The translations under genes were made by a program, and so were the position numbers. DNA of 64,000 nt from Spironucleus salmonicida (Eukaryota), in the NCBI RefSeq assembly GCF_000497125.1, contig NC_090601.1, positions 372,001 through 436,000 on the forward strand, written 5' to 3'. Under the pieces are notes generated by a model, which was not told where the DNA came from, searched no databases, and saw only the letters and a program-made list of their open reading frames with translations. Positions 2-61,530 of the stretch are shown here, one piece after another. Numbering within the stretch: position 1 is the first letter of the stretch; each line of letters starts with the position of its first letter.

Positions 2-3000
2 GTTATTGATTCAGAGGATGGTCCTTATGGGTATGGAGCTATACATAATGAACATACATAATAATGTACCACTTTAGCTATTTTCCCATAAAATAAATTA
101 ACACAAAAGTTATAAGATATCATTATAGTTTAAAATAATTTGTCAAAGAAAGATATACGGTTTTTTGATAATGAATAATAATATTTAGAATATCTAGAAA
201 CACATTAGTAATTTATTGATTTTGCTATACATGTTGAATCTAATCATAATTTTACAATTTATTATAACCATAGCAAAATTGAGCCTGATATGTATAAGTT
301 ATATGGTAATGATGATTTTGGATAAAAAATATAAGGATAATTTTCAAGTATGGTCCTGACAATCTAGTTTTAGGTTTAAAATGCTCTTAATATTATAAAT
401 AACATATAATAAAACCTAACTATTGGTTAAATACCTCCAGGTTTAAATACAATGGATGTTCGTATTCCTTCTGAATTTGTTAGTATGTTGCTAATTATAT
501 TCATTTTAATAATTTAGTTAGTTTTCGTTAGTTATGATTTAATTTTAGACAAATAGCAAAGATCTTTATCATTGCTACGATTATTAGGAATGGTTGACTC
601 TATATATTTGATGACTAATTTTATTTGGGAAATAGGAATATTTATTATAGAAATAATATTGTTTGTTTTCACTATTTTCATACATAACAATTCTTCATAC
701 TTCTACTACATAGATTGTGTGCTCTTGTTTACTATGTTACTTATAACTGGGATTGCTACTACGGCATTTGCTTTTTTTGTTTCGTCAATTTGCTCGACAA
801 TAAAAGCTGGTATATTTATATCGATTGGTTATTCTTCTTTATAAATTTGTGCTTTTATAATTTTCATTATAATGAACTCGGCGCATATTTTTGATTCATC
901 GTTTTTATCTAAATGGATAGCTTATTTTCTACTATTTCTTTTTCCTTTATTACCAATATAAGTTATATTTTAACAAGCATTTAAAATAATTAATCCTGAA
1001 ATTTAATTAGATGAATAGTTAAAAATATAAATTATTATTGGTAATAAATTAAAGATGTAAAGTGCATTTAGTGAAAAATTAAGCTACAGTTGTTTAGTAT
1101 AGACGCAAAATGGATGTTAATTTTCTTAACCAACTATAGTATTCACGCTTTCTATTCTTATTATTTAAAGTTTTGTGTTTCTTTTCTTAGCATGGTCATT
1201 TTATGAATATATAGAAGATAATTATTCTACTATGCGTACTATGAAATAAATTTATTAACAAAAGGGATAATTAAGCAATGCTACTAACTCTTCTATGCAA
1301 AGATAACGTTGCAATCAATAATAGTATGAAAATATCATAGATTAGAACCAATAAGCTGATGAGAATTCTAAAATCTTAATTGCGGATTCTGTGCTTGGAA
1401 GAAATAATTAACATATAGTTTTATAAACACATTCATTGAAGAAAACATTTGCTTAATTTTAGGCAGTAAAATCATTATCAATGATTATTTAGAGAGGCCA
1501 ACTAATAAGTCTACTAGGATAAAATGGAAGTGGTAAAACAACATTTATCAATATGATAATAGGTGCGTTACGTCCAGACAAATCCATAACTGAGCTAAAT
1601 TAAGGATATGTGAATGGTTTTGACATTAGATCCCAAATATAGCAAATAAGATAGCAAATTGGAGTTTGTCCACAATTCTCTACTCTATTTGATTATTTAT
1701 CACCTTTGTAGCATTTATTATTGGCATAATTTTTGCGAAATGTTAGCTATACTTCTGCTGTTAAAAATGCTGAAGAAATGTTGCATGCTGTGCAACTATT
1801 TGATAGGAGGCATGATAGTGTTGATTCTCTAAGTGGTGGAATGCGTCGTAGAGTATCAATAGCTACAGCAATGGTTAATGATAATTCATTAATTATTCTC
1901 GATGAGCCTACCGGTTCACTTGACCCATAATGCAAAAGAATTATTTGGGATGCTATTAAATATGTTAAGAATGGAAGAAAAATTTATGACGGAAAAAGTT
2001 TCATCCCAGGAAAGATTCCTGGTATTTTACTTACAAGCCATGATATGACTGAAACTGAGATTTTAGCAGACTAAATTGTGGTAATGGAAAAAGGACTAGT
2101 AAGAGCAGTTGGCGATCCACTATAGCTTAAGAAGAATTATAACAGTGGAAAGTACATTGTAATGTCGATTAAAGATAAAGTATCATTTATGGCTGTCCTT
2201 AAACTATTGTAGAAATAAATAACCGATTCTGGTATATTTTTGATGGAAATTACTGCACATATAGCTACAATTGAGATTACGCCACAGGCTGAATTATTTA
2301 TGGGATAAATACTTAGCTTCCTAGATGATAACGTTGAAAATAGCATTATTTTGAATTATACTGTATTTGATGGGAGTCTTGAATAGGTGTTTCTAAATTT
2401 AACGAGGTATAACACTGTACCCTAAGAATTAGAAAGCCCCTTTGCCCATAACATTGGAAAGAAATAAAAATTTGTTCCATTTTTTAATAAGCTATTTAAT
2501 TCTGATCGTGCTAGTCTCTCAGCATTAATGGGGTATATAATACTGCCAATTATATTAATGATAATATGCTTATTAGTAGCTGATGTATTTATTCCATGGC
2601 TTATAAGTATGGTAAACCTTACCTTAGCTGATGTTAAGCGGAAGGTGCTACCTGGCTGTTAATTGTGTAAACTTATATATTCTCCTGATAAATGTTCAGG
2701 TTATGATCTTTCTGGGAATATGAGACTTTGTTAGCTTATTAACAAAGTTAATGGTGTTACTATTACCTTACCAGATAAATATTTAGGAGGATTCTAGACA
2801 CATAGTATTGCATCGAGTATGTATAATGCAAGTTCTACATTATTTGTAACAGGTACTGGATCAATCCTATTCTCAAATAAAACTATGGAATTCGATTATC
2901 CATGTATAATAAATGGTGATGTGCATCCAAAATGCTTGCCTGATGTTCTAGCTGCGTACTCCGCAGAATAGGCAGTCATACCTTTCTCATTTGTTTAAAA

Positions 3001-4648
3001 ATAAATAGGCACGAAGTATATAATATTCCCTGATCTTAATATAGTTTATTATCGAAGCAGTACATATTTAGATCTTATTGCTGACGTTAAAAATATTCAA
3101 CTTAGTGGTGGTTTGAAAGGTAATCTTACTAGATAGGAAATGTTTAATATTATCCCAATCGCTATTATTAATTTAGAAGATTCGGTACCAACAGCGATAT
3201 TTAGTTATTTCCCTTTTGATTATCCCAGAGGAGGTTATAAGAATTTAGGTATAGTTGTTAACAACAGCACAATTTCATTGCCACCTTAACCTTTAGAGTC
3301 AAGTTTAATTGGATTATTTCCAGATACCATAGTTGTTTCACCATTTTCAGATCTGATCGCTCGTCTAGGAAAATACTAAGTTAAGGTAAAAGCTCTACCG
3401 TTCTAATATACTGTACTTATCGCATAAGCTGAAGAACGAGCTAAAGTTTTAATTTCTCTATTCTTCCTCCTATTAGCTTGTTCTACGGTTTCACCTATCC
3501 TTGCATTTAACCCAATCCTTGACCGAGAGAAAGGAATTATTAAGTTGCTTAATCAGCTGCGGGTGAACCCTTGCTGCTATTGGGTTGCTACCTTCATCTA
3601 CCAGTTACTGGTATCTACCCTGGTACACGTGGCAATATACGTGTTCGCGGCGGTTTTCCAGCTTTCTGTGCTCAGACGGGTCAGCTTCGCGATCGCGGTA
3701 CTTCTGCTGGCCACCAGTGTGCTCTGCCAGGTGGCATGCGCCGCGCTGCTCTCGGTGTTCCGCAACGCCTCCGTGGGTTTGCTGTTTGGCTTCGTCCTTG
3801 TTCTTGTGCAGGCCCTTGCCTCTCTGGCGTTCGGGCACTATGAGAACTACAGGCTGCGCGCCTGGGAGTTCCTCACACCGTAGCTAGCGCTAAATTCGCT
3901 GTTTCTGCTGGCAGGGAGCAGTGGGAAGATCGGGCCCGTAGAGGTCCGCCTGATCGTGGGATGCCTGGTCGAGAGCGCCTGTATTCTCGTAGCCACCGTC
4001 CTTATGCACCTGGCAGGATACCTGAGTTATTAGAGCCGGGCGGCCTAGATGTATGAGAGCGGCAACTGCGTCCGACCAGTTGCTTCTCAGATTCCCGTGC
4101 TGGGCCTGCCGGGACGAGTCGCCGACGCCCTAACGCAGTCCGCCCACGACAGGGCAGTCCGGAACGACGACATGGATTGCGACGTGCAGCTGGAGCGGGA
4201 GCGCGTCGCCGGCGGCTGCCCTGTATAGGCAATCACGGCCGTGAACGTGCAGAAGCACTACGGCCCCCAGATAGCAGTACGGGACGTAACGCTGTCCGCT
4301 TGCAACGAGATCTTCGGCCTCCTCGGCTCCAGCGGGGCGGGGAAGTCCACTCTGGTGGAGATGATGGCGGGCATCTCGAGGCCCAGTCAGGGGGCCGTGA
4401 GCGTGGGCCTAGTCCCCATCGCACACGCCGCGCAAGCTATGGGGCTGTGCCTCCAGGACGACGTGTACCTGCCGAGTCTCACGGTTCTGCAACATCTGGA
4501 GTTCTTCGCGCGGATCAAGGGCGTGGACCCCCACGAGGCGTCCCGGATTGGCGAGTGCCTGGGCCTGGGGGAGAAGCTGTCCTGCCGGGTCGGCCAGCTC
4601 AGCGGCGGGATGAGGCGGCGGATGAACCTGGCGATCGGGATGATGTGA
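2..4648 (+). CDS. ABCA-family ABC transporter (5' end outside window; second NBD ends early)
   Basis: Single frame (positions = 2 mod 3) open in code 6. TM blocks; NBD1 Walker A GQNGSGKTT (~1517), signature LSGGMRRRVSIA, Walker B LIILDEPTGSLDP; ABCA motif DMDCDVQLERERV; NBD2 GSSGAGKST and LSGGMRRRMNLAI, then TGA at 4646-4648. Confidence 0.9.
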
Positions 4649-4670
4649 CGAATTCGACTGCACTGCCAGA

Positions 4671-4916
4671 ATGAGCCTCTCGGACTCGGTCGCGGCTTTC
4701 AAGCAGTCCGTGCGCTGCAACGTCTGCGAAGCCCAGTTCACAGATCAGGTGTCTTTCCTGAAGCACCTCGAGAGCGCCGACCACCGCCGCCAAGTGGGCA
4801 TGCCGACGCTGGTCCCCCGCAAGCCGACCCTTCGCGACTTGCGGACGTTCCTCACGGGGACGGAGGGAAGGTACGGCGACGCCCAGACGAAAGCGCGCAC
4901 TCGGGTAACCCAGTGA
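4671..4916 (+). CDS. ZMAT2: Matrin/U1-type C2H2 zinc-finger protein, Snu23/ZMAT2-like (81 aa)
   Basis: CNVCEAQFTDQVSFLKHLESADHRRQVGM..V.R.PTL matches my recollection of the Snu23/ZMAT2 pattern CNVC...D..NFL.H....H.R..GM...V.R.TL; ends AGTGA. Confidence 0.65.
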   Translation: MSLSDSVAAFKQSVRCNVCEAQFTDQVSFLKHLESADHRRQVGMPTLVPRKPTLRDLRTFLTGTEGRYGDAQTKARTRVTQ

Positions 4917-5088
4917 TGGGCCAATCGCCAGCTGCTGGTGGCGTTCCGCGTTGGCCATATCCCCGAAATAGACCCGGACAGTTTATCTTTGGTGCGCGGC
5001 GGGGAACGCAGTATTATATGATATCCCGCGCGCCATCGAAAACCACCCGGACGTTTCGCGTCTTTCCGAAATTTCCGCATCTCCAAGA

Positions 5089-5358
5089 ATGTCTGACCGC
5101 CAAGTCACAGTCAAAAACGCCGACATGCCCGAGGAAATGCAGCAGGACGCCATCGACGCTGCCGTCCAAGCGATGGAGCGTTTCAACATCGAGAAGGATA
5201 TCGCAGCATACATCAAGAAGGAGTTCGATAAGAAGCACCACCCCACCTGGCACGTCATCGTGGGCAAGAACTTCGGCTCTTACATCACCCACGAGACCAA
5301 GCGTTTCATCTACTTCTATGTAGGCCAGCTTGCCTTCCTCATCTTCAAATCCGGTTGA
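5089..5358 (+). CDS. LC8: Dynein light chain LC8 (89 aa)
   Basis: [13 protein letters not shown]...[43 protein letters not shown]...LIFKSG, canonical LC8. Confidence 0.98.
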
Positions 5359-5437
5359 GTGAGAATTTATCATTTCGTTTTCCGGCCCTGGGTCCGCATA
5401 CTCCCTCCACTCGTGCCTACCGCCGCCCCAGTCCTAA

Positions 5438-6115
5438 ATGTCGCAGAAATTCCCGACGCTGTAGCTGGCCCCAGCGACCACCAAGCCGACGCCCAGACAT
5501 AGCTTGACGACCAGGAATGCGCTCCGACTCAGGATCAACGAGACGCAGAAGCACCTATACGACACCCCGCACACCCAGGTGCTAGCGCTCCGGCAGTCCC
5601 AGCCTGGGAGCACGTAGCGCTTCACGCGCTCCAAGCACCAGTCGGCAATCGCCCAGATAGCTGCAATGCAGTCGAACCGCCAGGGCGCCAAGATGACGCC
5701 GAACTAGCAGGAGGAGTACCTTACGTTCCTGGTCTAGAAGGCCTTCTTCGACTACCTGAACACCCAAACTGACCTCTTCAAGGAGATAGCGCTTAAGCTG
5801 GAAGCAGCACGGGGGCAAACCTTTCAGGAATACGACAGGCTCAGCCAGCTCAAGTCTGACAACTTCTACTTACAGAAGAAACTTATTGAAATGCAGAATA
5901 GCAAGATTTACAGCAGCTGTTAGGATGTCAAAACCCTGCTTCAGAGCTGCAACAGTGACCTGATCGCGCTGCTTCAAGAGATCGGTGTGTGCAAAAAGCT
6001 ATCGAAACTGGATGAGGCGGAAGCTGTCGGCAAACAGATAGAACTAATGAACCAGAAGATACAGACGGTGCAGACAGCTGTTCACTAGCTGAACAACGTG
6101 ATCCAGGGCAAGTGA
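5438..6115 (+). CDS. Hypothetical coiled-coil protein (225 aa)
   Basis: ATG 5438 (MSQKFPTLQLAP...) to AAG-TGA 6115, open in code 6; C-rich upstream sequence. Confidence 0.75.
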
Positions 6116-6130
6116 ATAGGTTTAGCTCAC

Positions 6131-6265
6131 TCACCCGCCCATCGATCTTCCGATAGTCCTCTCTTGGTAGTCACCGATCTCGAATTCATCGTCGGAGATC
6201 TTTCCATACGCGTCCTTCTAGAATTTCAGTGCCGCTGCCGCTCTCTAGTGATATTTTTCGTCCAT
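6131..6265 (-). CDS. Small ORF, 44 aa (copy 1)
   Basis: MDEKYHQRAAAALKFQKDAYGKISDDEFEIGDYQERTIGRSMGG; stop followed by AGTGA; fills the gap between two genes. Confidence 0.5.
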
Positions 6266-6393
6266 TTTTGATTTTGGTGGAGATTTATTTGATAGGTCAC
6301 TCTGAATCTGATTTGAAGTATACAAAATGTTCCTGACTATAAATATATTATACGAAATAGTAGCCTATGCTCTTCGGTAATTGCAGAAAACGA

Positions 6394-7592
6394 TCACATC
6401 CACTATTTGACGTACTCCCAACACAGTAGACTGAAACTAACGTGGACATTGAGGCTGCGAACCACTCCAAACTGCGGAATCTCCACAAAATGGTCACACA
6501 TCTATAGAATCTTGTCCGGGCATCCTGTGGTTTCATTCCCTAGCACGATCGCACACTTAGACGGAAACTTGAACTAGTCTAAAGATACCGACCCTGAGCA
6601 CTGTTCGAGTGCTATCACGCAGTACCCTGCCTCTTTGAGAGATTTAAGTTTTTCTTATAATTCTTCCACCCGCCACTCCTCTATCACGATATGCTAGTCA
6701 GCAGTTACTGCACTACCCCTGAACACACTGTGCTCACACAATTTCAAGTCTCCTATTATCATCTTTTCTGCCCCAAAAATTTCGCTGGTACGACAAATTC
6801 CGCCCAAGTTCACTGAGTTATCCAACAGGCTACATACTGGGATGAGGCTAAATTTTTTAGGCTCTACATCAATCTTTGTTTGCTACTGGGTAGAAAAAGT
6901 AATTGGTTACAACTTCTGGTTCAGCTCTAAGATCTTTTCACTGTTTATTATAGCATTATCCCTGAGTAACTGGTTTTCTGTGAAAATTTTATGGATAGGC
7001 TGGAATGTCGGAATTTAAGTGTCAATCAGCGCAATAGCGCTAATTATTTAATCACTAACAATTATTTATGTTTTGTGGTATAATTAATTTAATGCGAAAA
7101 TCGCCAAATTACGCTACTTTGATTTGTTACTAAAACAAGCATTAACTATCTACTAGGTTAGCATACTGTCTACCGCAGCATCCTGTTAAATTGTAGATAT
7201 AATGATGTTGAGATATTTTATGTCGCTAAACACCAATTTATTCTGAACATAGTAATATGAAACGGCAGCTTCGAGTGCAGTTTGTGCTAGAAGTGGTAGG
7301 TTTTTCATTTATAAATATTTTAACAACTACATTGTATATTATGTATTTTTAAATTTAAGGCAAAGTGCGTTTAAAAGATAACTAATTTAAATTATCTACT
7401 TGAAATATGTAGAGTTCGAGCCAATTCTTTTATTTTAATTCTCGAAAAACTTGATTTTTTCTGATCTTATTTAGTAGATAAAAAAGTTATCGCTTTCTAT
7501 TAGATTAAATAACTCAGAAATCGTTGCTGAGTTACTTTCTTCTATAAATTTATCCACTATGCAATGACGGGATAAGATGTCTGATTAGAATG
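6394..7592 (-). pseudogene. 5'-truncated copy of Trm3 (3' ~400 codons including the SpoU domain)
   Basis: Matches 10099-11297; the 5' half is missing at the arm junction 7592, and I saw no in-frame ATG immediately upstream. Confidence 0.8.
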
Positions 7593-7703
7593 ATTGTTAT
7601 TAAGGTACACTATAGTTTATTATTTATACTTGATATATCGTAGAATATACTATAAAAACAATTGTTAATTAATGATATATTATATAAGTTTTAGTTTATT
7701 AAA

Positions 7704-8693
7704 ATGAATCCGACTCATATTGCAACTATTTTGCTTACTCCATTACTTAATGTAACTGATAATCTAATATTCTCTCCATTATCTTTATTACACGCACTTT
7801 CTCTACTATCTATACTTTCTGATGGGTCAGCAGCAGACGAGCTAAATAACGTATTTAACCTACAAGGATATGACCCAGCCGCGAATAAGAACTTTCATTT
7901 GGCAGCCAACATATTTATGAGGAACCTTAACCTGCTGAAGAGTAATGATGCGATGGCTGCGTTTAAGATTGATCCACAGCCACTTTTATCTGCAGAGTAA
8001 GTAAACAAATGGGTATCGGATAACACAGCAGGGATGATTCCGAAAATATTGGAGAAGATTGGAGACGAAGAAGTAATTCTGGTCTCTGCATTATATTTTA
8101 GCGGTAAATTCTAGAATGCCTTCGACCCAAGACAAACTGTTGCGGCTGATTTCTCATCATTCAACGGGAAAACGCCATGCCAGATGATGTATGCAAAGCG
8201 CCATATGGGATATGCGCGCACCAGTACAGCTCAGGTGGTGGAGCTAGAGTACGCCGATTCTGATATAGTTGCGAGGCTAATACTCCCGCTAGAGGATGGC
8301 TAGGCGGCGTTTGAGCATAGTCTATCCGAAGAAAATTTAGACGCAAAATTGCGTCCTATAGAGATAGCTCTTTAATTTCCAAAATTTGAAGTTGAATCTT
8401 CTTTAGTATTGAATGACATATTAAAGTATATAGGTGTTAGGTAAATATTTGAGAAAGTAGATTATGATAAAACTCTTGGGTCTGCTTTATAGGTCGATTA
8501 GGTTTTATAAAAATCTATTGTCAAAGTTGATGAAGAAGGAACCGTTGCTGCAAGTGCAACAGCAATTAGAATGGTAAGAATGGGAGCAAGATTACAGTAA
8601 CTAGAACGGGTTATCTGTAATAAACCTTTTTGGTTTATACTTGAGAGTAGTAATAAAATAGCTTTTGTAGTAGCAGTATCAAAATTTTAATGA
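7704..8693 (+). CDS. Serpin 1 (329 aa)
   Basis: NLIFSPLSL, VNKWVSDNTAGMI, LYFSGKF, FPKFEVES, hinge VDEEGTVAASAT, NKPFWFI; TGA 8691-8693. Confidence 0.95.
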
Positions 8694-8738
8694 ACATAAA
8701 ATAAATTATTATTATATAATATTTGATATTACTATTTA

Positions 8739-11297
8739 ATGACGAGTTTCTTTAGATAATTTTCAAATAGTTACTTAAGGGATCTTCCAGATACAACTTT
8801 GAAAGATATGAAAACGTTATAAGAAGGACATAATCATCTTTCTTATTAAATAATATAGAAGTAGTTGCTTTCAGAATAACCTGATTTATTAATTTTAGAA
8901 TCAGCTATTAACTCACCTTCAGCGTAAATCAGAAGATTAGCAGTTTAAGCAATACTGTGCTCAAGAAACTATCTATCAGAAGATTTTATCATCAATAAAT
9001 TTATTCCAGCTTTGTAATCAAAATAGGTAACGATACCTAATATACAGTAATATTATAATGATTTTATGTTAATTTAGTATTCGAAAGATAGCGCACATTT
9101 TTTGAATATTGAGGATCTATAATTTGGCCTTGCAATTTATTATTATAGTTTTTATTTATAACAAATTTAGTCAATTTCTCCAGCTTAATATTCAATTATT
9201 TGCTGTTTAGAATTAAAAAATTATTTAAAATAGTATAATATTACTAATTTAATTTAATCAATATAAGTTAGGCTTCCTGCATCAATTTTATATGTTTTAT
9301 TTGACTTAGTTAAAGAACAAAATTTAATGATATAGTAGAATGTTGTAAACAAGATTTTACAGCAAACAAGTTTAGATTGTAGGTCTTAGCTTTTAAATAT
9401 TTCTATATATATAGTAGAAGATAAATCTCAGTTAGTAATAGATCGGTAAACTGAGCTTGATTGTTTTATACCAAATATAAGTACTTTAAACAGTTTAAGC
9501 CAGTTTATAGTTGCTATAAAACGCAATAACTATATATTTATTAATAATAATATTGATATTTTTATTAATAACCAAAATTAGTTTCATTTTGGTACGATAA
9601 TAGAATTTATATCTTTATTATCGGATACCTCAAAATAGCAACTAAGTCTATTATAGCTACCATTTTCATTCTAGTACTTTCCTAATATTGATCCTTTGAT
9701 AAGTGAATACACTGATGAATTATTCCTTTAGATTCTATTATTAGCTAAGACACTTTCAATAACAGATGAATATTTCATTCATTTCTGCAACCGTGCACGT
9801 TAAATAGAAGGGCCAACCTAATTTATTGCAAGTATTTATTAAATTATTATTAATCTAGCTAATTCATAATTACGATTATTGTGCCATGAATTTGCAAATA
9901 TTTTTACATCGATTCTTGAATTTTGTTAAAAATTTCCAGCATATTCGTATATTTATACTGGTTTTTAAAAAGATATCCAATTATCTCCTATATACATCAA
10001 TATCTTGTTTTCAGCTGTTCTCACCATAGCATCTCCATCAAGTGACCCATAATTTCATGAAAGTAATCTACTTGTATTACTAAGTACAAATTAATAAGCA
10101 TTCTAATCAGACATCTTATCCCGTCATTGCATAGTGGATAAATTTATAGAAGAAAGTAACTCAGCAACGATTTCTGAGTTATTTAATCTAATAGAAAGCG
10201 ATAACTTTTTTATCTACTAAATAAGATCAGAAAAAATCAAGTTTTTCGAGAATTAAAATAAAAGAATTGGCTCGAACTCTACATATTTCAAGTAGATAAT
10301 TTAAATTAGTTATCTTTTAAACGCACTTTGCCTTAAATTTAAAAATACATAATATACAATGTAGTTGTTAAAATATTTATAAATGAAAAACCTACCACTT
10401 CTAGCACAAACTGCACTCGAAGCTGCCGTTTCATATTACTATGTTCAGAATAAATTGGTGTTTAGCGACATAAAATATCTCAACATCATTATATCTACAA
10501 TTTAACAGGATGCTGCGGTAGACAGTATGCTAACCTAGTAGATAGTTAATGCTTGTTTTAGTAACAAATCAAAGTAGCGTAATTTGGCGATTTTCGCATT
10601 AAATTAATTATACCACAAAACATAAATAATTGTTAGTGATTAAATAATTAGCGCTATTGCGCTGATTGACACTTAAATTCCGACATTCCAGCCTATCCAT
10701 AAAATTTTCACAGAAAACCAGTTACTCAGGGATAATGCTATAATAAACAGTGAAAAGATCTTAGAGCTGAACCAGAAGTTGTAACCAATTACTTTTTCTA
10801 CCCAGTAGCAAACAAAGATTGATGTAGAGCCTAAAAAATTTAGCCTCATCCCAGTATGTAGCCTGTTGGATAACTCAGTGAACTTGGGCGGAATTTGTCG
10901 TACCAGCGAAATTTTTGGGGCAGAAAAGATGATAATAGGAGACTTGAAATTGTGTGAGCACAGTGTGTTCAGGGGTAGTGCAGTAACTGCTGACTAGCAT
11001 ATCGTGATAGAGGAGTGGCGGGTGGAAGAATTATAAGAAAAACTTAAATCTCTCAAAGAGGCAGGGTACTGCGTGATAGCACTCGAACAGTGCTCAGGGT
11101 CGGTATCTTTAGACTAGTTCAAGTTTCCGTCTAAGTGTGCGATCGTGCTAGGGAATGAAACCACAGGATGCCCGGACAAGATTCTATAGATGTGTGACCA
11201 TTTTGTGGAGATTCCGCAGTTTGGAGTGGTTCGCAGCCTCAATGTCCACGTTAGTTTCAGTCTACTGTGTTGGGAGTACGTCAAATAGTGGATGTGA
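8739..11297 (+). CDS. TRM3: tRNA (guanosine-18 2'-O)-methyltransferase Trm3/TARBP1-like (852 aa)
   Basis: C-terminal SpoU domain: [46 protein letters not shown]...WEY; long N-terminal extension; ATG and TGA in the same frame (the middle was only spot-checked for TGA). Confidence 0.88.
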
Positions 11298-11425
11298 TCG
11301 TTTTCTGCAATTACCGAAGAGCATAGGCTACTATTTCGTATAATATATTTATAGTCAGGAACATTTTGTATACTTCAAATCAGATTCAGAGTGACCTATC
11401 AAATAAATCTCCACCAAAATCAAAA

Positions 11426-11560
11426 ATGGACGAAAAATATCACTAGAGAGCGGCAGCGGCACTGAAATTCTAGAAGGACGCGTATGGAAAGATCTCCGAC
11501 GATGAATTCGAGATCGGTGACTACCAAGAGAGGACTATCGGAAGATCGATGGGCGGGTGA
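11426..11560 (+). CDS. Small ORF, 44 aa (copy 2)
   Basis: Mirror of 6131-6265. Confidence 0.5.
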
Positions 11561-11575
11561 GTGAGCTAAACCTAT

Positions 11576-12253
11576 TCACTTGCCCTGGATCACGTTGTTC
11601 AGCTAGTGAACAGCTGTCTGCACCGTCTGTATCTTCTGGTTCATTAGTTCTATCTGTTTGCCGACAGCTTCCGCCTCATCCAGTTTCGATAGCTTTTTGC
11701 ACACACCGATCTCTTGAAGCAGCGCGATCAGGTCACTGTTGCAGCTCTGAAGCAGGGTTTTGACATCCTAACAGCTGCTGTAAATCTTGCTATTCTGCAT
11801 TTCAATAAGTTTCTTCTGTAAGTAGAAGTTGTCAGACTTGAGCTGGCTGAGCCTGTCGTATTCCTGAAAGGTTTGCCCCCGTGCTGCTTCCAGCTTAAGC
11901 GCTATCTCCTTGAAGAGGTCAGTTTGGGTGTTCAGGTAGTCGAAGAAGGCCTTCTAGACCAGGAACGTAAGGTACTCCTCCTGCTAGTTCGGCGTCATCT
12001 TGGCGCCCTGGCGGTTCGACTGCATTGCAGCTATCTGGGCGATTGCCGACTGGTGCTTGGAGCGCGTGAAGCGCTACGTGCTCCCAGGCTGGGACTGCCG
12101 GAGCGCTAGCACCTGGGTGTGCGGGGTGTCGTATAGGTGCTTCTGCGTCTCGTTGATCCTGAGTCGGAGCGCATTCCTGGTCGTCAAGCTATGTCTGGGC
12201 GTCGGCTTGGTGGTCGCTGGGGCCAGCTACAGCGTCGGGAATTTCTGCGACAT
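11576..12253 (-). CDS. Hypothetical coiled-coil protein (copy 2)
   Basis: Mirror of 5438-6115. Confidence 0.75.
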
Positions 12254-12332
12254 TTAGGACTGGGGCGGCGGTAGGCACGAGTGGAGGGAGTATGCGGACC
12301 CAGGGCCGGAAAACGAAATGATAAATTCTCAC

Positions 12333-12602
12333 TCAACCGGATTTGAAGATGAGGAAGGCAAGCTGGCCTACATAGAAGTAGATGAAACGCTTGGTCTCGT
12401 GGGTGATGTAAGAGCCGAAGTTCTTGCCCACGATGACGTGCCAGGTGGGGTGGTGCTTCTTATCGAACTCCTTCTTGATGTATGCTGCGATATCCTTCTC
12501 GATGTTGAAACGCTCCATCGCTTGGACGGCAGCGTCGATGGCGTCCTGCTGCATTTCCTCGGGCATGTCGGCGTTTTTGACTGTGACTTGGCGGTCAGAC
12601 AT
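12333..12602 (-). CDS. LC8: Dynein light chain LC8 (copy 2)
   Basis: Identical protein to 5089-5358. Confidence 0.98.
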
Positions 12603-12774
12603 TCTTGGAGATGCGGAAATTTCGGAAAGACGCGAAACGTCCGGGTGGTTTTCGATGGCGCGCGGGATATCATATAATACTGCGTTCCCCGCCGCGCGCC
12701 AAAGATAAACTGTCCGGGTCTATTTCGGGGATATGGCCAACGCGGAACGCCACCAGCAGCTGGCGATTGGCCCA

Positions 12775-13020
12775 TCACTGGGTTACCCGAGTGCGCGCTT
12801 TCGTCTGGGCGTCGCCGTACCTTCCCTCCGTCCCCGTGAGGAACGTCCGCAAGTCGCGAAGGGTCGGCTTGCGGGGGACCAGCGTCGGCATGCCCACTTG
12901 GCGGCGGTGGTCGGCGCTCTCGAGGTGCTTCAGGAAAGACACCTGATCTGTGAACTGGGCTTCGCAGACGTTGCAGCGCACGGACTGCTTGAAAGCCGCG
13001 ACCGAGTCCGAGAGGCTCAT
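12775..13020 (-). CDS. ZMAT2: Snu23/ZMAT2-like zinc-finger protein (copy 2)
   Basis: Identical protein to 4671-4916. Confidence 0.65.
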   Translation of the reverse strand: MSLSDSVAAFKQSVRCNVCEAQFTDQVSFLKHLESADHRRQVGMPTLVPRKPTLRDLRTFLTGTEGRYGDAQTKARTRVTQ

Positions 13021-13042
13021 TCTGGCAGTGCAGTCGAATTCG

Positions 13043-13998
13043 TCACATCATCCCGATCGCCAGGTTCATCCGCCGCCTCATCCCGCCGCTGAGCTGGCCG
13101 ACCCGGCAGGACAGCTTCTCCCCCAGGCCCAGGCACTCGCCAATCCGGGACGCCTCGTGGGGGTCCACGCCCTTGATCCGCGCGAAGAACTCCAGATGTT
13201 GCAGAACCGTGAGACTCGGCAGGTACACGTCGTCCTGGAGGCACAGCCCCATAGCTTGCGCGGCGTGTGCGATGGGGACTAGGCCCACGCTCACGGCCCC
13301 CTGACTGGGCCTCGAGATGCCCGCCATCATCTCCACCAGAGTGGACTTCCCCGCCCCGCTGGAGCCGAGGAGGCCGAAGATCTCGTTGCAAGCGGACAGC
13401 GTTACGTCCCGTACTGCTATCTGGGGGCCGTAGTGCTTCTGCACGTTCACGGCCGTGATTGCCTATACAGGGCAGCCGCCGGCGACGCGCTCCCGCTCCA
13501 GCTGCACGTCGCAATCCATGTCGTCGTTCCGGACTGCCCTGTCGTGGGCGGACTGCGTTAGGGCGTCGGCGACTCGTCCCGGCAGGCCCAGCACGGGAAT
13601 CTGAGAAGCAACTGGTCGGACGCAGTTGCCGCTCTCATACATCTAGGCCGCCCGGCTCTAGTAACTCAGGTATCCTGCCAGGTGCATAAGGACGGTGGCT
13701 ACGAGAATACAGGCGCTCTCGACCAGGCATCCCACGATCAGGCGGACCTCTACGGACCCGATCTTCCCACTGCTCCCTGCCAGCAGAAACAGCGAATTTA
13801 GCGCTAGCTACGGTGTGAGGAACTCCCAGGCGCGCAGCCTGTAGTTCTCATAGTGCCCGAACGCCAGAGAGGCAAGGGCCTGCACAAGAACAAGGACGAA
13901 GCCAAACAGCAAACCCACTGAGGCGTTGCGGAACACCGAGAGCAGCGCGGCGCATGCCACCTGGCAGAGCACACTGGTGGCCAGCAGAAGTACCGCGA
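13043..13998 (-). pseudogene. 5'-truncated ABCA fragment (last TM helices plus partial NBD2)
   Basis: Mirror of 3693-4648; no in-frame ATG found in ~340 nt upstream of the junction. Confidence 0.85.
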
Positions 13999-14392
13999 GC
14001 TGGAATGCTGCCACATATACCACGAGAGATGTGATGACCTTGTTAATTACATGGTTGGTTTTTCTGTGAAATATAAATTTTATAGAATCTTTATAGCTTA
14101 AAACTATTGGATATGCTAATATTTTAAATACCTATTCACAATTTATTTTACATATTAATTCTGCTTTACTAGTTTATAAAATAAATATTTTAACAAATTT
14201 AATAATTTGCGTTGATAATAAATATTTATTAGTAAAACTTAATAAGTAAAATTATAATATATATTTAAATTAGTAGCGATACTAGAATAAATTGATCGTA
14301 AGTAATTAGCTTTAAATTTGTTTCAAAATGCTTATTTGGAAAAATTATTACAAAATATATTATAATCAATAAATTTTAAATAAAAGTTAATA

Positions 14393-33004: not shown

Positions 33005-33994
33005 TCACTTTGTAGTTTAAATTCCTGCAGAGAATATAAGGTCTTGTCCATCCTATAAAATAAACCAAAAAGGTTTATTGAATGAAACTTCTAAGACTTT
33101 TTCTTAAACTAAGCTGCTGCCACGCATGGATATTATCGTAACGCTTGCTGCATCTGTACCAAACTCATCAACTGTTATAACAGACTTCTAAATAACACTA
33201 CTGACTCTTAGTTAACTTCCTAACGATTCCCTGCAATCTATACTTTCAAACATCTGATTCACATCAACTTTCTACAATATTTATTTTAGCTCAAAAGTTG
33301 ACTGTATTTCAAACTATGGAAGCCTCAATTCTATTTCTTTAGATCTCAACTTTGCGTCTAAATTTTCTTCGGATAGACTATGCTCAAACGCCGCCTAGCC
33401 ATCCTCTAGCGGGAGTATTAGCCTCGCAACTATATCAGAATCGGCGTACTCTAGCTCCACCACCTGAGCTGTACTGGTGCGCGCATATCCCATATGGCGC
33501 TTTGCATACATCATCTGGCATGGCGTTTTCCCGTTGAATGATGAGAAATCAGCCGCAACAGTTTGTCTTGGGTCGAAGGCATTCTAGAATTTACCGCTAA
33601 AATATAATGCAGAGACCAGAATTACTTCTTCGTCTCCAATCTTCTCCAATATTTTCGGAATCATCCCTGCTGTGTTATCTGATACCCATTTGTTTACTTA
33701 CTCTGCAGACAAAAGTGGCTGTGGATCAATCTTAAACGCAGCCATCGCATCATTACTCTTCAGCAGGTTAAGGTTCCTCATAAATATGTTGGCTGCCAAA
33801 TGAAAGTTCTTATTCGCGGCTGGGTCATATCCTTGTAGGTTAAATACGTTATTTAGCTCATCTTTTGCAGGGCCTTATGCAGATGCAGAAAGCAGTGCCA
33901 GGACATATATTAATGATAATGGTGAGAAAACGATATTCTAACCTTAAGCTAAAGCTGGAGCCATATTGATAGCTGCAATTTTTGTTGGCTCCAT
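33005..33994 (-). CDS. Serpin 2 (329 aa)
   Basis: NIVFSPLSL, core shared with serpin 1, hinge VDEFGTDAASVT, NKPFWFI; ends AAG-TGA. Confidence 0.95.
33351..33859 (-). repeat. 509-bp near-identical core shared with serpin 1 (7839-8347)
   Basis: Paired coordinates sum to 41698; two synonymous differences seen. Confidence 0.93.
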
Positions 33995-49804: not shown

Positions 49805-50167
49805 ATGAACAATTTGTTTCGTAGTTTCAGTTACCTCTAAAATAGATACGACCGTAAATTTCCAGTTCACTATCCACAGTAGCTTCTAGTAACTTAACTC
49901 ATGGAAGAGCAGAATGCTGCAGACACTGAGCAGGTTGAACTTGAAGACAAGAAGATCATTCAGGCGAACTATCGCAGGTACGGCGTTATCAGACGCCCGC
50001 ATCAGGAAAAACTAGAGATTGATGAGGACATCTTTTTTGATCTCGATGGTATCGATACAAATCAGGCACAACCCCGCGACCTAGACTTCATCAACGCGCA
50101 GTTCGTGCGTAACAACCGGCTGTAGATAGAGCGGCGGCGGTACCGCAGGGGCGGGGTACCGGAGTGA
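49805..50167 (+). CDS. Hypothetical protein (120 aa); its 3' end lies inside IR2
   Basis: MNNLFRSFSYLQNRYDRK...RRGGVPE*, ends GAGTGA. Confidence 0.7.
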
Positions 50168-50173
50168 GCAGTT

Positions 50174-51388
50174 TCATCCCCATCCGAATGACGTGTTTGC
50201 GAGCTTGTTGCTGAGCTGGAATGTGTGGTTCTGGATCCGCTCTGCACGCTGCTGCCGCTAGGCACGGTGGTGCTTCATGGACAGGAACACTATATAGGCA
50301 ACCCATACCGCGGTCAGCGCAAGGAACACAAATTCAGTGTTCGTGATGGTGTGTTGCTCTGCATGGCAGCCGCCGCCCCGGTTCGTGAACTTCGGACCGC
50401 AGATGCGGCAGCGGCCATCCGCATAGCACAGATTGCAGTTTGATGCGTGACACTGTAAAGGCTAGCATCCAATCAGCGTCATCTCAAAGCCGAAGAGACA
50501 CTTCTGACAGTTGGAGTGTTCGTCGCAGCTTGCGCAGTTTTGGCGACTGATACAGACGCACACGCCGCCGAGCAGCTAGCTTCCAGTTCCGCATTGAGAG
50601 CAGATGGTATCTGCGCCCAATATGCAGTTCTGTACCAACGGTGCGCCGCAAATACCGCGCGTGCCAGCTTGCCCAGACTCACAATTTCCACAAATAGTTG
50701 GATCCACATCGTCACAAAACAGGCAGTCCCGGGTGTCACAGGAGCCGCACGTGAGACCGTTCTAAGTTGGAATACCGCTGGTGCATGCAATGCAGCGGTT
50801 GTCCTCGCATAGCGTGCAGTGGGGAATGGTCTAGCAGGCGCTCGAGACACAGGAGTCTCCCGATATTGAAACCGAAAGTGAGCCACAGAGCAGGCACATT
50901 CCATTTACTAAAGCGAAGCCCTATTTGCATGCGGAGCAGTGGCGTGTAAAAATATCGCACTGGGCACAGTAGGGAATGTTGGCACAGTCACGCGAGCAGG
51001 CGTGATCTGGCGTTGGCAAATAAGTAGAATGGCATTCCTGACAGATTTTGGTGTTTCCAGAGATAGTACAGGCGAGACACCCGCGAGGGCAATCGCAGTT
51101 ATTGTGTGAAAGAAAGTATCCAGCAGCGCACTGCATGCATATATCGGGTACGTTAGCTATCCGACAGTTTATACCACTATATGCGATACAGGTATTTGAG
51201 TCCTCGTTGGTGACGAACCCTGGTATGCAGCGCGCACAAAGCTTGCCTTAGATAGGCTTACAGATTGCACAGTTCTCAACACTACTACAAGATCCACATG
51301 ATGTATGGTATAGATCTGGTAGGAAACCGGGCATGCACTTGAGGCAGACTGGAGTTTCGGGATGTTCGATTAGACAGTTGGTTATCAT
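50174..51388 (-). CDS. Cysteine-rich (CxxC) membrane protein, copy 1 (404 aa)
   Basis: Mirror of 60227-61441. Confidence 0.85.
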
Positions 51389-51917
51389 TTAGGAATGGAA
51401 ATCATTCAGACTGATGAACGTAGTTCCGTATCCAACCGGTGAAGGAGATTGGGAGGTTACGTTGGATGTACTGCGGCGTGGATATATAGTTCGTATCTGC
51501 GGTGATGGTTTTGGTAAGATCTGAGAAGGCTAGGACGTCGGTACTGAAGGGGTGTTCCCGGTACATTATCTGTGGTAACATCTCTTATATTATGTTTACT
51601 TAGGGGTGAGCCCATCTGGTCCTGCTCGCGGGTGGAGTAACAGTGATCGTTTCTGATATGACATTCGTATACACTGAATAAGTTTTGCTTCATTCCTGTA
51701 CATAATAATATATGATCAAGTTATTTATGAAAAAATCTATTAACTACCTCACCATAATATATTTATAACATTGAATGAAAAACAGGACCTTTACCCAACA
51801 TTGCGAATACTGCCTAATAGATCTAAAGCTATTTCCCTTCCTATTTATAACTTATGATCTGAATGACCATATTAATATATTAATATTCAGTATGTGGTTT
51901 CTACGTATATCTTACAA

Positions 51918-52088
51918 ATGAAGCTTGACTCGGCAAGGCTAAGATAGAAGCTACTTGCAATCAAAAGTAACGAAGCACTGCCACCAAAGCAGTCAATTGA
52001 GGAGGCCCAGCTTCCAATATTATAAACCAATGATAGCTACGAATAGGACTCGTTCGAATTGTCTATGACTTGTATTGAAGGAAAGTGA
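51918..52088 (+). CDS. Small ORF (56 aa), copy 1
   Basis: MKLDSARLRQKLLAIKSNEALPPKQSIEEAQLPILQTNDSYEQDSFELSMTCIEGK*, ends AAGTGA. Confidence 0.55.
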
Positions 52089-52777
52089 GTATATATAATA
52101 TAAAACTATCCTCAGCCAACCAGTTCTTTAAATTGCTGCGGTATCACACTTATAATCGCCCATTAACTAGGTAGCTGGCTTAATATCTGGTAACTCCGCT
52201 GCATGGGAAGCGAAGTATTATTTAAGGTTATGCGATGGAATTTCATATTTTAGATGGTTACACAAGTTTGAAGCGTTTAGTCGATAAAAGCTCTAGTCAG
52301 ACTAAGCAGAAGGAAGTACATAATGGAAGATTTTAAACACGAATATACTTCTTAAATATATTGCACCTCATTATACTTACTAGTCGTGCAGTCGTGTCAA
52401 GGACCAGATAACTGCGGAGATATTACCTTCTTTGAAAATGTATATAATTTCTCTATTATTATCCTAATGTTCAACATTTGCACAGAAACAGCCGAATATC
52501 TATTCCACGAAAATTGTTCTGTATCAGCTTACTACTCTATATAATAAATATTTAGTATTTGGAGGGTTATATTATTTGCTCTCAGTGTATTTTAATCTAG
52601 AAAATACCCCATTGAAAGTCACGAGCTGCATATGAAACACTATACGCTACAAAATCTGCAGTCATTAGTCCCGATCCCTATTTATGTGATACGTATGGGT
52701 GTTTATCAGTCAGCCCTCAGCATGCACATTTATCTAATTCTATAAAAAACCAAGTGTAAAGTAAGTAATCATATTTC

Positions 52778-53029
52778 TCACTCGTCTATCAGGCGCACCA
52801 GCGCCAGGATATCATTAAGCGTGATATCTGAAAGTGATGGAGATTCCCGGATGACAACCTCATCAGATGGATCGTTCCTAGCAATCTTGTAATACTTGTT
52901 CTTCAGCTGAGATACAGTATGACCGCGGAAAGATCTTTCCCGTATGGTCTCCCACCTCCCTCGATATTCCTTATATGCTTGTTGCAACCGTTCCTCTTGT
53001 TCGTAAGTCCATTTAATTCTTCCTGGCAT
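52778..53029 (-). CDS. Small single-repeat Myb-like DNA-binding protein, copy 1 (83 aa)
   Basis: RIKWTYEQEERLQQAYKEYRGRWETIRERSFRGHTVSQLKNKYY; start chosen at MPGR because of the upstream CCACTTC. Confidence 0.85.
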   Translation of the reverse strand: MPGRIKWTYEQEERLQQAYKEYRGRWETIRERSFRGHTVSQLKNKYYKIARNDPSDEVVIRESPSLSDITLNDILALVRLIDE

Positions 53030-53778
53030 TATATATGAAGTGGAGAATCTGTTGATCTCTTTGTATCTATAATATAAGTTTATTTTTATTCTCTCAGATT
53101 TTCTTATCATGTGTAGACTAGATAATCGCGTTCAGTATGAGTTATTTTGGGAAAGAGTACTATCAACCTAAAAATCTTTATATGTATTTTTTAGTATATC
53201 TGCTAGAATAGAAAAAGTTTTTTCTGCATTATTAAAATAATATATGTATTAATGTAATAAAACCAGTAACCATGCAAAATGTCTATATACATTTTAATAT
53301 ATTTATAGTATATACCAACCTCAATACTGATCTAGAAATAGATAATTTTAGGATATAATTTGATAAATAGTAAATTATGATGATCTTAGGAAATTCGAAT
53401 GTATACATTTGTAAAAGATTGCCTAATCATAAATTATATATAAAAGTCCTTTACATAATACTTAAAACTTTATAATTTTTGTAACTAGTAATATTATCTG
53501 AAATTACAATCATTTTTACTTGGCATTTTATATTTATATTATAATATAATATTAGTATTACTAAAAATTATCACAACTATTATAAAATTTAAATTTAGCG
53601 CTAATCGCAGGAAAAATGTTTAAATTTAAAAAATATACAGGTGGATTATATATATTTTTATTAAACACTTACGATATTTGGTATCTCACGTCATAAAGTC
53701 AGTGAGTAATTTGACTTGACGAACTAAAAGTGTTGTTCGTCGTGGTAAAATATAAGTGATTGGTATGAAGAGATAAAA

Positions 53779-54879
53779 TCACTTTATCTCTTACCCATTG
53801 ATCTGTGAAATCCACGAAGATACTACCTCTACCATCGTCTCAGCCCCCATATCCTGTACTGCCTAACTAGGGACTACTCTGATTCCTTAGATAAGATTCC
53901 TCTGCATTTCTTTCATCGTTTTTGGGTACTATTTTTCCAAGTAAAATGAGCTACTGCCAAGGGGGACACTTGCTCTCATTGTTTCATAGAGCATGCTCTC
54001 AAGATCTGTTCGTTTTTGTAGGATCAAGGCAGATATAGTTCTAAGCCTATACAGCTCCTTACACTTAATATATACTAGTTTTTCCAAACTGCGTAGTTCC
54101 TATTTGTAGTGTTGCTTCTCACTTTCGAATTTTTTCAGCAACTCACTGACGAAACTACTCACCTACTACTTTTCTGCTTCATATTTTCTCTCGAAGTCAC
54201 TGATAATCACTTACATCTAGATAATTTGATTGCTTTACTCGCCTATTTTTCTCTCCATTTCTTGTTTTACACTCAGCTCATATCGCTATACGTCTTTTTA
54301 CCCGATAAAGCCCTCGCTGACTGGCTTACTTTACTTTTTCAGCAACTGGATGCCCTTCTAGAGTTCAATGTTCTGTATTCGTAAAAGCTTAGTCTCTCTT
54401 CCAACGTCTTAGTTATATCTTGCCAGCTTCTCTGCAACGGCATCTTCTACAGCTTTCCTTTTGTCTATCTCAAATGCTGCAGTTCGCTATGCAGCATCTG
54501 CAAGTGCTTACTACTTCAAAAGATCTAATTAAAGCTCTAAATCCTACCTCTATTCTTCGCTAATTTCTAGGCGCCGCAAAAGTTAAATCTTCTCTCCTGC
54601 AAACTAACCGAAGTCACTTAGCAGCTACTAAAAGTCATTAATTCGCGATCTTTCCTAGTCTAGATCAGTTCGTAATAATTAATTCTCATGGGCGGCATCA
54701 TCTAGACGCTTATTAGCTTGCTTTTCAGTTTGCGCCTGAAATTCCTCAAGCTTAGACTCCATCGCGCGGTACTTAGCGCGTTCGCGTGCGAGCTCTTCTT
54801 TGAGCTAGTTGATTTATTCGGCACTTCTTCGCTCAATGTTTGCTATTTTCTGATGCAGAAATGTTGGGTCGTTTTGCAT
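53779..54879 (-). CDS. Coiled-coil protein, BBOF1/CCDC176-like, copy 1 (366 aa)
   Basis: Mirror of 56736-57836. Confidence 0.7.
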
Positions 54880-54921
54880 TTTTATATAATAATTTCTATA
54901 TAAATTCACTTATAATTTTTA

Positions 54922-56634: not shown

Positions 56635-56735
56635 ATATGTTTAGTCTTATTATGATTATTATATTCATTAAAGTATTAATTTGTTTTATCATGAATATAT
56701 TATTATATTGTTATAATATGTTTATATACCTTAAA

Positions 56736-57836
56736 ATGCAAAACGACCCAACATTTCTGCATCAGAAAATAGCAAACATTGAGCGAAGAAGTGCCGAATA
56801 AATCAACTAGCTCAAAGAAGAGCTCGCACGCGAACGCGCTAAGTACCGCGCGATGGAGTCTAAGCTTGAGGAATTTCAGGCGCAAACTGAAAAGCAAGCT
56901 AATAAGCGTCTAGATGATGCCGCCCATGAGAATTAATTATTACGAACTGATCTAGACTAGGAAAGATCGCGAATTAATGACTTTTAGTAGCTGCTAAGTG
57001 ACTTCGGTTAGTTTGCAGGAGAGAAGATTTAACTTTTGCGGCGCCTAGAAATTAGCGAAGAATAGAGGTAGGATTTAGAGCTTTAATTAGATCTTTTGAA
57101 GTAGTAAGCACTTGCAGATGCTGCATAGCGAACTGCAGCATTTGAGATAGACAAAAGGAAAGCTGTAGAAGATGCCGTTGCAGAGAAGCTGGCAAGATAT
57201 AACTAAGACGTTGGAAGAGAGACTAAGCTTTTACGAATACAGAACATTGAACTCTAGAAGGGCATCCAGTTGCTGAAAAAGTAAAGTAAGCCAGTCAGCG
57301 AGGGCTTTATCGGGTAAAAAGACGTATAGCGATATGAGCTGAGTGTAAAACAAGAAATGGAGAGAAAAATAGGCGAGTAAAGCAATCAAATTATCTAGAT
57401 GTAAGTGATTATCAGTGACTTCGAGAGAAAATATGAAGCAGAAAAGTAGTAGGTGAGTAGTTTCGTCAGTGAGTTGCTGAAAAAATTCGAAAGTGAGAAG
57501 CAACACTACAAATAGGAACTACGCAGTTTGGAAAAACTAGTATATATTAAGTGTAAGGAGCTGTATAGGCTTAGAACTATATCTGCCTTGATCCTACAAA
57601 AACGAACAGATCTTGAGAGCATGCTCTATGAAACAATGAGAGCAAGTGTCCCCCTTGGCAGTAGCTCATTTTACTTGGAAAAATAGTACCCAAAAACGAT
57701 GAAAGAAATGCAGAGGAATCTTATCTAAGGAATCAGAGTAGTCCCTAGTTAGGCAGTACAGGATATGGGGGCTGAGACGATGGTAGAGGTAGTATCTTCG
57801 TGGATTTCACAGATCAATGGGTAAGAGATAAAGTGA
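56736..57836 (+). CDS. Coiled-coil protein, BBOF1/CCDC176-like, copy 2 (366 aa)
   Basis: Long heptad-rich ORF; LEKLVYIKCKELYRLRTISALILQKRTDLESMLYETM resembles the BBOF1 C-terminal motif as recalled (the CDS is secure, the name is tentative). Confidence 0.7.
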
Positions 57837-58585
57837 TTTTATCTCTTCATACCAATCACTTATATTTTACCACGACGAACAACACTTTTAGTTCGTCAAG
57901 TCAAATTACTCACTGACTTTATGACGTGAGATACCAAATATCGTAAGTGTTTAATAAAAATATATATAATCCACCTGTATATTTTTTAAATTTAAACATT
58001 TTTCCTGCGATTAGCGCTAAATTTAAATTTTATAATAGTTGTGATAATTTTTAGTAATACTAATATTATATTATAATATAAATATAAAATGCCAAGTAAA
58101 AATGATTGTAATTTCAGATAATATTACTAGTTACAAAAATTATAAAGTTTTAAGTATTATGTAAAGGACTTTTATATATAATTTATGATTAGGCAATCTT
58201 TTACAAATGTATACATTCGAATTTCCTAAGATCATCATAATTTACTATTTATCAAATTATATCCTAAAATTATCTATTTCTAGATCAGTATTGAGGTTGG
58301 TATATACTATAAATATATTAAAATGTATATAGACATTTTGCATGGTTACTGGTTTTATTACATTAATACATATATTATTTTAATAATGCAGAAAAAACTT
58401 TTTCTATTCTAGCAGATATACTAAAAAATACATATAAAGATTTTTAGGTTGATAGTACTCTTTCCCAAAATAACTCATACTGAACGCGATTATCTAGTCT
58501 ACACATGATAAGAAAATCTGAGAGAATAAAAATAAACTTATATTATAGATACAAAGAGATCAACAGATTCTCCACTTCATATATA

Positions 58586-58837
58586 ATGCCAGGAAGAATT
58601 AAATGGACTTACGAACAAGAGGAACGGTTGCAACAAGCATATAAGGAATATCGAGGGAGGTGGGAGACCATACGGGAAAGATCTTTCCGCGGTCATACTG
58701 TATCTCAGCTGAAGAACAAGTATTACAAGATTGCTAGGAACGATCCATCTGATGAGGTTGTCATCCGGGAATCTCCATCACTTTCAGATATCACGCTTAA
58801 TGATATCCTGGCGCTGGTGCGCCTGATAGACGAGTGA
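58586..58837 (+). CDS. Small Myb-like protein, copy 2
   Basis: Mirror of 52778-53029. Confidence 0.85.
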   Translation: MPGRIKWTYEQEERLQQAYKEYRGRWETIRERSFRGHTVSQLKNKYYKIARNDPSDEVVIRESPSLSDITLNDILALVRLIDE

Positions 58838-59526: not shown

Positions 59527-59697
59527 TCACTTTCCTTCAATACAAGTCATAGACAATTCGAACGAGTCCTATTCGTAGCTATCATTGGTTTATAATATTG
59601 GAAGCTGGGCCTCCTCAATTGACTGCTTTGGTGGCAGTGCTTCGTTACTTTTGATTGCAAGTAGCTTCTATCTTAGCCTTGCCGAGTCAAGCTTCAT
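59527..59697 (-). CDS. Small ORF (56 aa), copy 2
   Basis: Mirror of 51918-52088. Confidence 0.55.
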
Positions 59698-61441: not shown

Positions 61442-61447
61442 AACTGC

Positions 61448-61530
61448 TCACTCCGGTACCCCGCCCCTGCGGTACCGCCGCCGCTCTATCTACAGCCGGT
61501 TGTTACGCACGAACTGCGCGTTGGTGAAGT
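61448..61530 (-). pseudogene. 3' remnant of the 49805-50167 gene
   Basis: Mirror of 50085-50167; no upstream in-frame ATG before the next TGA. Confidence 0.7.

Follow-up and report, generated by a model that had tools for sequence, protein, structure and literature searches.

GC-rich, probably old arms and a probably inverted spacer in a local inverted repeat of Spironucleus salmonicida, one of a class of such repeats

The stretch of Spironucleus salmonicida DNA analysed here, called the window, spans 64,000 nucleotides of contig NC_090601.1 (C6:372001-436000; positions are given in window coordinates unless prefixed by C6 or C8) and carries near its left end an inverted duplication with two 3.9-kb arms around a 2.5-kb spacer. 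At silent and non-coding sites the arms contain more guanine plus cytosine (GC) than the flank or the spacer, and many other local inverted repeats occur on this chromosome. The arms have very probably been kept alike over a long time by arm-to-arm copying biased towards G and C. The spacer stands inverted relative to the order that the genes suggest for the ancestor, and there is about an even chance that the repeat was born inverted in one step, with only rare flips since.

Long reading frames were found in the window only under NCBI table 6, which was used for all translations and is in keeping with a hexamitid diplomonad. Self-BLAST of the window aligned 3693-7599 with 10092-13998 at 99.85% identity, and the core of the arms (3693-7592 and 10099-13998) holds four mismatches in 3900 bp. 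The inverted duplication proposed in an original prediction, made from the sequence alone, is therefore confirmed. All four mismatches (left-arm positions 3772, 3935, 4030 and 4993) oppose G or C to A or T, and the inner 2.6 kb is identical between the two arms. Three differences fall within an ABCA-type transporter gene, of which two are silent and one, in the outer part of the arm, is a Pro/Ser exchange, the sole amino-acid change. The elements of the locus are as follows.

3693..7592: left arm, 3900 bp; GC 0.62 over the 600 bp next to the flank, declining to 0.29 over the 600 bp next to the spacer
10099..13998: right arm, inverted copy of the left arm
7593..10098: spacer, 2506 bp, GC 0.29; orientation probably inverted relative to the ancestral order, as judged from reading-frame continuity
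2..4648, plus strand: ABCA-type transporter gene, starting 18 codons before the window and in frame through the left outer edge
3542..3692, plus strand: GC-rich shoulder of ABCA beyond the present arm; GC at third codon positions (GC3) 0.68 (34 of 50 codons), versus 22 of 100 codons just upstream
4671..4916, plus strand: C2H2 zinc-finger protein, 81 amino acids; GC3 0.86; copy at 12775-13020, minus strand
5089..5358, plus strand: dynein light chain LC8; GC3 0.79; copy at 12333-12602, minus strand
5438..6115, plus strand: 225-amino-acid protein with no Pfam match; GC3 0.76; copy at 11576-12253, minus strand
6394..7592, minus strand: headless 3' half of Trm3, cut at the left inner edge
7704..8693, plus strand: serpin 1, inside the spacer
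8739..11297, plus strand: Trm3/TARBP1-like SpoU methyltransferase, 852 amino acids, in frame through the right inner edge
13043..13998, minus strand: headless 3' copy of ABCA, with an internal 214-amino-acid frame at 13043-13687
13999..14054, minus strand: possible decayed ABCA remnant past the right outer edge (weak)

Genes cut by the repeat edges give the orientation of the spacer. The ABCA gene, previously called intact, does run as one open frame through the left outer edge, but it is not full length and ends before the second Walker B motif. Trm3 is intact through the right inner edge as predicted, in a single frame, and its partner copy is cut. The left arm is thus parental at its outer edge and the right arm at its inner edge, so that an ancestral order A B C D has become A B C' B' D (prime denoting inversion). 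This geometry agrees with the ancestral order proposed earlier, ABCA-zinc finger-LC8-hypothetical protein-Trm3(-)-serpin(-), provided that the ABCA and Trm3 frames are both ancestral. Fold-back inverted duplication by itself, which had been offered as a sufficient origin, was rejected: in the model described in PMC3907307 a plain fold-back would leave the spacer collinear with the parent arm.

Both new junctions were found in contigs of two sequencing runs, X1 and X2. The left inner junction is present in both (7600 joined to 10092 on opposite strands), and the contigs continue past 13998 into the right flank, no single record spanning the arms. Depth over the arm was about twice that of spacer and flank (321 versus 152-193 and 21.5 versus 10-11.4 in the two runs), contig depth not being copy number. 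The two runs come from one sample, possibly the source of the window, so that they exclude a simple assembly error and do not provide an independent sample. In runs X5 and X6, from another study, contigs show only the two ancestral joins. On Trm3 the contigs of X5 and X6, presumably RNA runs, start at 10314 and 10299, close to the internal ATG of the headless copy; as contig depth does not rank parts of a gene, no conclusion is drawn from these starts. An X6 contig (9664-10172) spans the right inner edge within Trm3. In X5 and X6, a contig that runs from the left flank of ABCA into the arm carries the letters of the right arm at all three ABCA differences (13661-13998), where X1 and X2 have mostly left-arm letters. 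This last pattern could result from conversion in that culture, from letters misplaced in the assembly or from the assembler's choice between variants.

Since one gene crosses each edge, the effect of duplication on base composition can be read within a single frame. Along ABCA, GC3 is 0.21 upstream of 3542 (250 of 1180 codons), rises to 34 of 50 codons in 3542-3691 and reaches 0.81 in the arm (257 of 317). Trm3 has a GC3 of 0.19 in the spacer, and of 0.30 rising to 0.56 in the arm. At fourfold degenerate sites, G or C was found at 283 of 365 positions in the outer arm genes versus 477 of 2379 in unique genes. Intergenic DNA behaves likewise (GC 0.55-0.57 in the outer arm and 0.41 in the inner arm, versus 0.07-0.16 outside), and codon selection is therefore not the cause. 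Second-position GC rises least, from 0.31 to 0.44, as expected for a gene under protein constraint. If the ancestor was as AT-rich as the neighbouring genes, about 210 net silent changes from A/T to G/C are common to both arms, against four differences between them. This disproportion points to GC-biased conversion from arm to arm and, on the same assumption, to arms that are old, not young. Orthologs in the sister species are described in PMC2874811 as having no extreme GC3. The genome has a Rad51/Dmc1-family gene and a Rad52 gene; the latter is located on C8 where a 4.5-kb inverted repeat has its outer edge (L083:6737-7591; L084 near 7500-8250), and its second copy is apparently frameshifted.

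The spacer had been described as unique. Its extent of 2506 bp holds, whereas its uniqueness does not: the serpin 1 core (7835-8367) has an inverted copy in serpin 2 (33331-33863), a 533-bp tract with 98.3% identity. GC3 of serpin 1 is 0.46 in this tract versus 0.14 and 0.17 on either side, and is thus raised only where two otherwise diverged old paralogs are identical, which speaks against the DNA having been GC-rich first. The shared tract ends before the C-terminal part, which remains different between the paralogs and presumably holds the reactive loop.

The repeat belongs to a class. In a survey of 864 kb of C6, 24 inverted matches were found, of which four were dropped (the serpin tract, an overlapping composite and two nested pieces); the 20 that were kept include two repeats that duplicate one another. 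The density is about one per 43 kb, with arms of 0.5-16 kb, and two further repeats were found in 100 kb picked on C8 and C1. Over the 864 kb, local repeats cover 34% of bases, and GC3 is 0.62 inside them versus 0.29 outside. Of 292 GC-rich 500-bp windows they contain 224, the other 68 lying outside the repeats detected. At many loci the GC edges track the repeat edges. Arm differences oppose G/C to A/T in 65 of 71 cases over the surveyed repeats, the ancestral letter not being assigned at individual sites. The window itself contains a second repeat (50085-54882 and 56733-61530; 4798 bp, one mismatch, 1850-bp spacer), with an alpha/beta hydrolase gene in the spacer and genes for a cysteine-rich membrane-type protein, a Myb protein and a 366-amino-acid protein in the arms. 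It shows the same GC ramp, high at the outer ends, and its inner edge lies 3 bp before an ATG. At most gene-cutting edges the arm carries the 3' part of the gene, with exceptions, as would be expected if only headless, silent fragments were tolerated.

Published work on S. salmonicida reports GC islands, for which the accounts in PMC1805757 and PMC2874811 give no mechanism in the parts accessible to us, and duplicated regions that make up 19.2% of the genome, with a GC content of 44.7% versus 30.7% (PMC9509377). Local inverted repeats offer a testable cause for these islands. No description of such palindromes in diplomonads was found in the open-access literature (supplements excluded), and the string 'invert' does not occur in the main text of PMC3916229.

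The window repeat may have arisen as follows. An old local rearrangement would have inverted the block containing the 5' part of Trm3 and the serpin gene and added an inverted duplicate of the adjoining 3.9 kb; a single step, by a staggered break with fill-in or by two template switches, would be the simplest course. It would have survived because each cut gene kept one whole copy, the cut copies lost their 5' ends and three small genes were merely doubled. Homologous repair would later have used one arm as template for the other, favouring G and C, which would hold the arms at 99.9% identity and raise the GC content of silent sites from about 20% to about 80%. The arm edges would shift slightly over time, and crossovers between arms could turn the spacer with no change of promoter or reading frame. 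This one-step inversion with a one-sided breakpoint duplication is the simplest origin and had been overlooked in the original prediction, which offered only arm-to-arm recombination or a fold-back template switch. One-sided inverted duplications are known at fly inversion breakpoints (PMC1885836).

Because the GC step of ABCA is displaced by 150 bp from the arm edge into the flank, and because weak traces of a remnant may exist past the right outer edge, the arm has probably retreated, the ABCA shoulder (3542-3692) being its probable former extent. The score of the putative remnant (13999-14054) was reached by 44 and 53 of 2000 DNA shuffles and, at the protein level, by 240 of 2000, which is not significant. 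When decayed homology was looked for past the edges of both window repeats, three of four edges scored within the shuffles (299, 241 and 74 of 500) and the fourth was weak (17 of 500). Just past the inner edge five of seven positions match.

The main alternative is that the repeat was born in native orientation, by fold-back or local inverted insertion, underwent the same GC-biased conversion, and had its spacer turned later by an ordinary crossover between arms, in which case orientation may still be polymorphic. Both histories give the same two new junctions, whichever way the spacer points, and this locus alone therefore cannot decide between them. Other repeats were oriented by asking, for each edge, on which side the gene is intact, with the help of Pfam, start contexts and a codon model that had been trained on long frames. 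Among 22 repeats, seven could be called, one was ambiguous and 14 had no cut gene at one edge. Six of the seven are reciprocal like the window locus (C6:107348, 208666, 275342, the window locus, 544577 and 1086237, with weaker gene calls for 107348 and 544577), and one, C6:468140, is collinear. By eye, the parent arm lies on the left in about ten cases and on the right in three along the chromosome, gene strands being balanced.

A later flip needs two events where one suffices, and predicts an even split where the sample leans six to one (not significantly). In its favour are the native-orientation repeat C6:468140 and a 4.4-kb GC-rich direct repeat (C6:441507-445942 and 455414-459849), one copy of which lies in the spacer of an inverted repeat (438482-454388), as a flip would leave it. 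Crossovers also accompany conversion in primate palindromes (PMC3723533, PMC8327919). Taken together, these observations leave a later flip as a serious possibility, of roughly one chance in three, and give a slight preference to an inversion that carried a one-sided breakpoint duplication from birth.

Several points weigh against this preference. The ratio of six to one is not different from 50:50 (p=0.125), nor is five to one when the window locus is left out (p=0.22); 15 of the 22 repeats could not be oriented, and C6:468140 is clearly of the collinear kind. Three inversions per 56 conversions were reported for a human palindrome (PMC3723533) and about 50% of spacers are inverted between primates (PMC8327919); where conversion is strong, crossovers are to be expected, which favours randomised orientation. 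The position of the ABCA GC step 150 bp beyond the present arm edge needs the extra assumption of edge retreat, and because the edges are eroded, microhomology at the junctions is unreadable. The direction of substitution and the ancestral order are themselves deduced from the present sequence. With the ABCA region outside the ATPase domains as query, ABCA itself was the only match among 7999 candidates; a profile search gave distant ABCA proteins only, and the Trm3 search gave ten matches, none named as diplomonad.

A second alternative, in which the sequence was GC-rich before it was recently duplicated and the arms are identical through youth, would account for the 99.9% identity, for the GC step 150 bp outside the arm and for the 68 of 292 GC-rich windows outside detected local repeats; GC-rich DNA has also been proposed to be more palindrome-prone (PMC8981503). 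This reading is improbable: GC edges track repeat edges at many loci, the serpin tract is GC-raised only where old paralogs are identical, there may be weak traces of a decayed remnant in the flank past the right edge, and the GC islands would be left unexplained.

The original prediction had also raised an invertible gene cassette, and a programmed one that switches gene expression would be in keeping with two features of the locus. Each orientation would keep the same genes, as predicted, since ABCA starts outside the repeat and Trm3 finishes in an identical arm, and a serpin in the spacer could matter to a parasite. The term is nevertheless overstated. The genome gave no hits for tyrosine (PF00589) or serine (PF00239) recombinases, other families not having been searched; controls were positive in 14 of 14 and 12 of 14 genomes. 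Serpin 1 and Trm3 start in the spacer and would move with their own upstream DNA, the sole amino-acid difference between arms lies in their outer part, and such repeats occur about once per 43 kb. In the classical site-specific switches, fim and hin, the invertible segment is flanked by inverted repeats; here there are no short recombination sites, no recombinase and no change of promoter or coding fusion. On its anatomy the locus is not an invertible gene switch, as no promoter would be relocated and no gene created by a flip, and a programmed cassette is very improbable.

An assembly artefact or amplification chimera is hardly credible: near-perfect inverted repeats are a known artefact type and the runs showing the new junctions may be the source sample, but both X1 and X2 contain these junctions with doubled depth over the arm, they choose different letters at two of the four arm differences, and the GC profile tracks the arms.

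Within the arms, GC is high at a sharp outer edge and near background at the spacer. In the 20 repeats of C6 the outer end is GC-richer than the inner end in six of seven with a spacer shorter than 3 kb and in five of 13 with a longer one, and a further short-spacer repeat agrees (0.56 outer versus 0.35 inner). The effect of spacer length is only suggestive: the Mann-Whitney test gave p=0.005 with a 3-kb cut chosen post hoc, the Spearman test p=0.13, and two of the 20 repeats are mutual copies. Stepwise inward growth of the arms or copying that runs outwards would each yield a ramp. Loop distance as its sole cause was rejected, GC3 at an arm-to-arm distance of about 3.7-4.3 kb being 0.45 here, whereas the inner ends of repeats whose spacers measure 3-4 kb have 0.86-0.91. 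For primates, the sections of PMC8981503 accessible to us give only differences between arm and flank.

A wider proposal, which we consider speculative and rather unlikely, is that the genome has been reshuffled by small inversions born with breakpoint duplication, whose arms are kept by crossover-poor copying directed outwards from the spacer. If true, such copying would jointly explain the reciprocal lean of six in seven, the sharp outer GC edge, the ramp and the GC islands, and would amount to an unusually strong, polar GC-biased conversion readable every 40 kb or so. Whether conversion comes with crossover could be told from the reciprocal or collinear configuration of such repeats, which bears on diplomonad recombination.

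Compared with known systems, the locus represents a familiar kind of repeat whose form here is unusually strong and dense. It resembles the palindromes of primate X and Y chromosomes, which have arms more than 99% identical, unique spacers, genes in both, GC-raised arms and spacer inversions that are expected to be neutral (PMC3723533, PMC8981503, PMC8327919). It differs from these accounts in the size and spacing of the arms (0.5-16 kb every 43 kb or so, versus 8-140 kb on the human X), in a far larger GC gain (GC3 from 0.21 to 0.81, versus 46% against 41% total GC in primates), and in edges that cut genes and GC that falls towards the spacer. The cell here also has two diploid nuclei, so that an allelic partner is not lacking.

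Staggered-break inversions of Drosophila likewise duplicate unique DNA in inverted orientation at both ends of the inverted block and leave partial gene copies, the duplication being one-sided in 12 of 18 cases (PMC1885836). The fly duplicates reported there have a median of 321 bp, a maximum of 1.9 kb and about 88% identity, whereas the arms here measure 3.9 kb, are GC-rewritten with 99.9% identity and enclose an inverted block only 2.5 kb long. Human fold-back inverted duplications also consist of inverted copies with a spacer of a few kb; as described in PMC3907307 they come with terminal deletions or translocations and a loop collinear with the parent, whereas this repeat is interstitial with its spacer inverted. 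Sharp GC islands and high GC3 are shared with the published GC-rich and duplicated regions of S. salmonicida (PMC1805757, PMC2874811, PMC9509377). In the accessible portions of those accounts the duplications are not identified as local inverted repeats, and surface-protein families are the only genes for which gene conversion is suggested.

Some minor observations were made on the surveyed DNA and on the genes of the locus. About 11 kb of GC-rich windows at C6:990501-1002000 could not be paired with a local repeat in the sample; their partner may be located elsewhere. At C6:737923-864580 an ABC transporter pair occurs four times in alternating orientation, suggesting nested inverted repeats. 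Three mutually similar tracts of 500-600 bp are nearly devoid of G or C (C6 near 539800-540420, 1031420-1032065 and 1098560-1099040).

For the 81-amino-acid zinc-finger protein, the earlier label ZMAT2 is not confirmed, as Pfam gives only C2H2 zinc-finger matches. The ABCA frame ends at a position matching residue 1593 of 1867 in plant ABCA1, directly past the signature motif of the second ATPase domain, and lacks the Walker B motif of this domain; the short end is present in both arms, and activity of the predicted product is doubtful. Past the ABCA stop (4646-4680), the same frame, which here overlaps the beginning of the zinc-finger gene, gives Asn-Glu-Pro at the spacing of a Walker B Asp-Glu-Pro; this match may be a remnant of Walker B or chance. 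In the headless Trm3 copy, an internal ATG at 7332 could start a 312-amino-acid protein that includes the complete SpoU domain; this frame and serpin 1 stand head to head.

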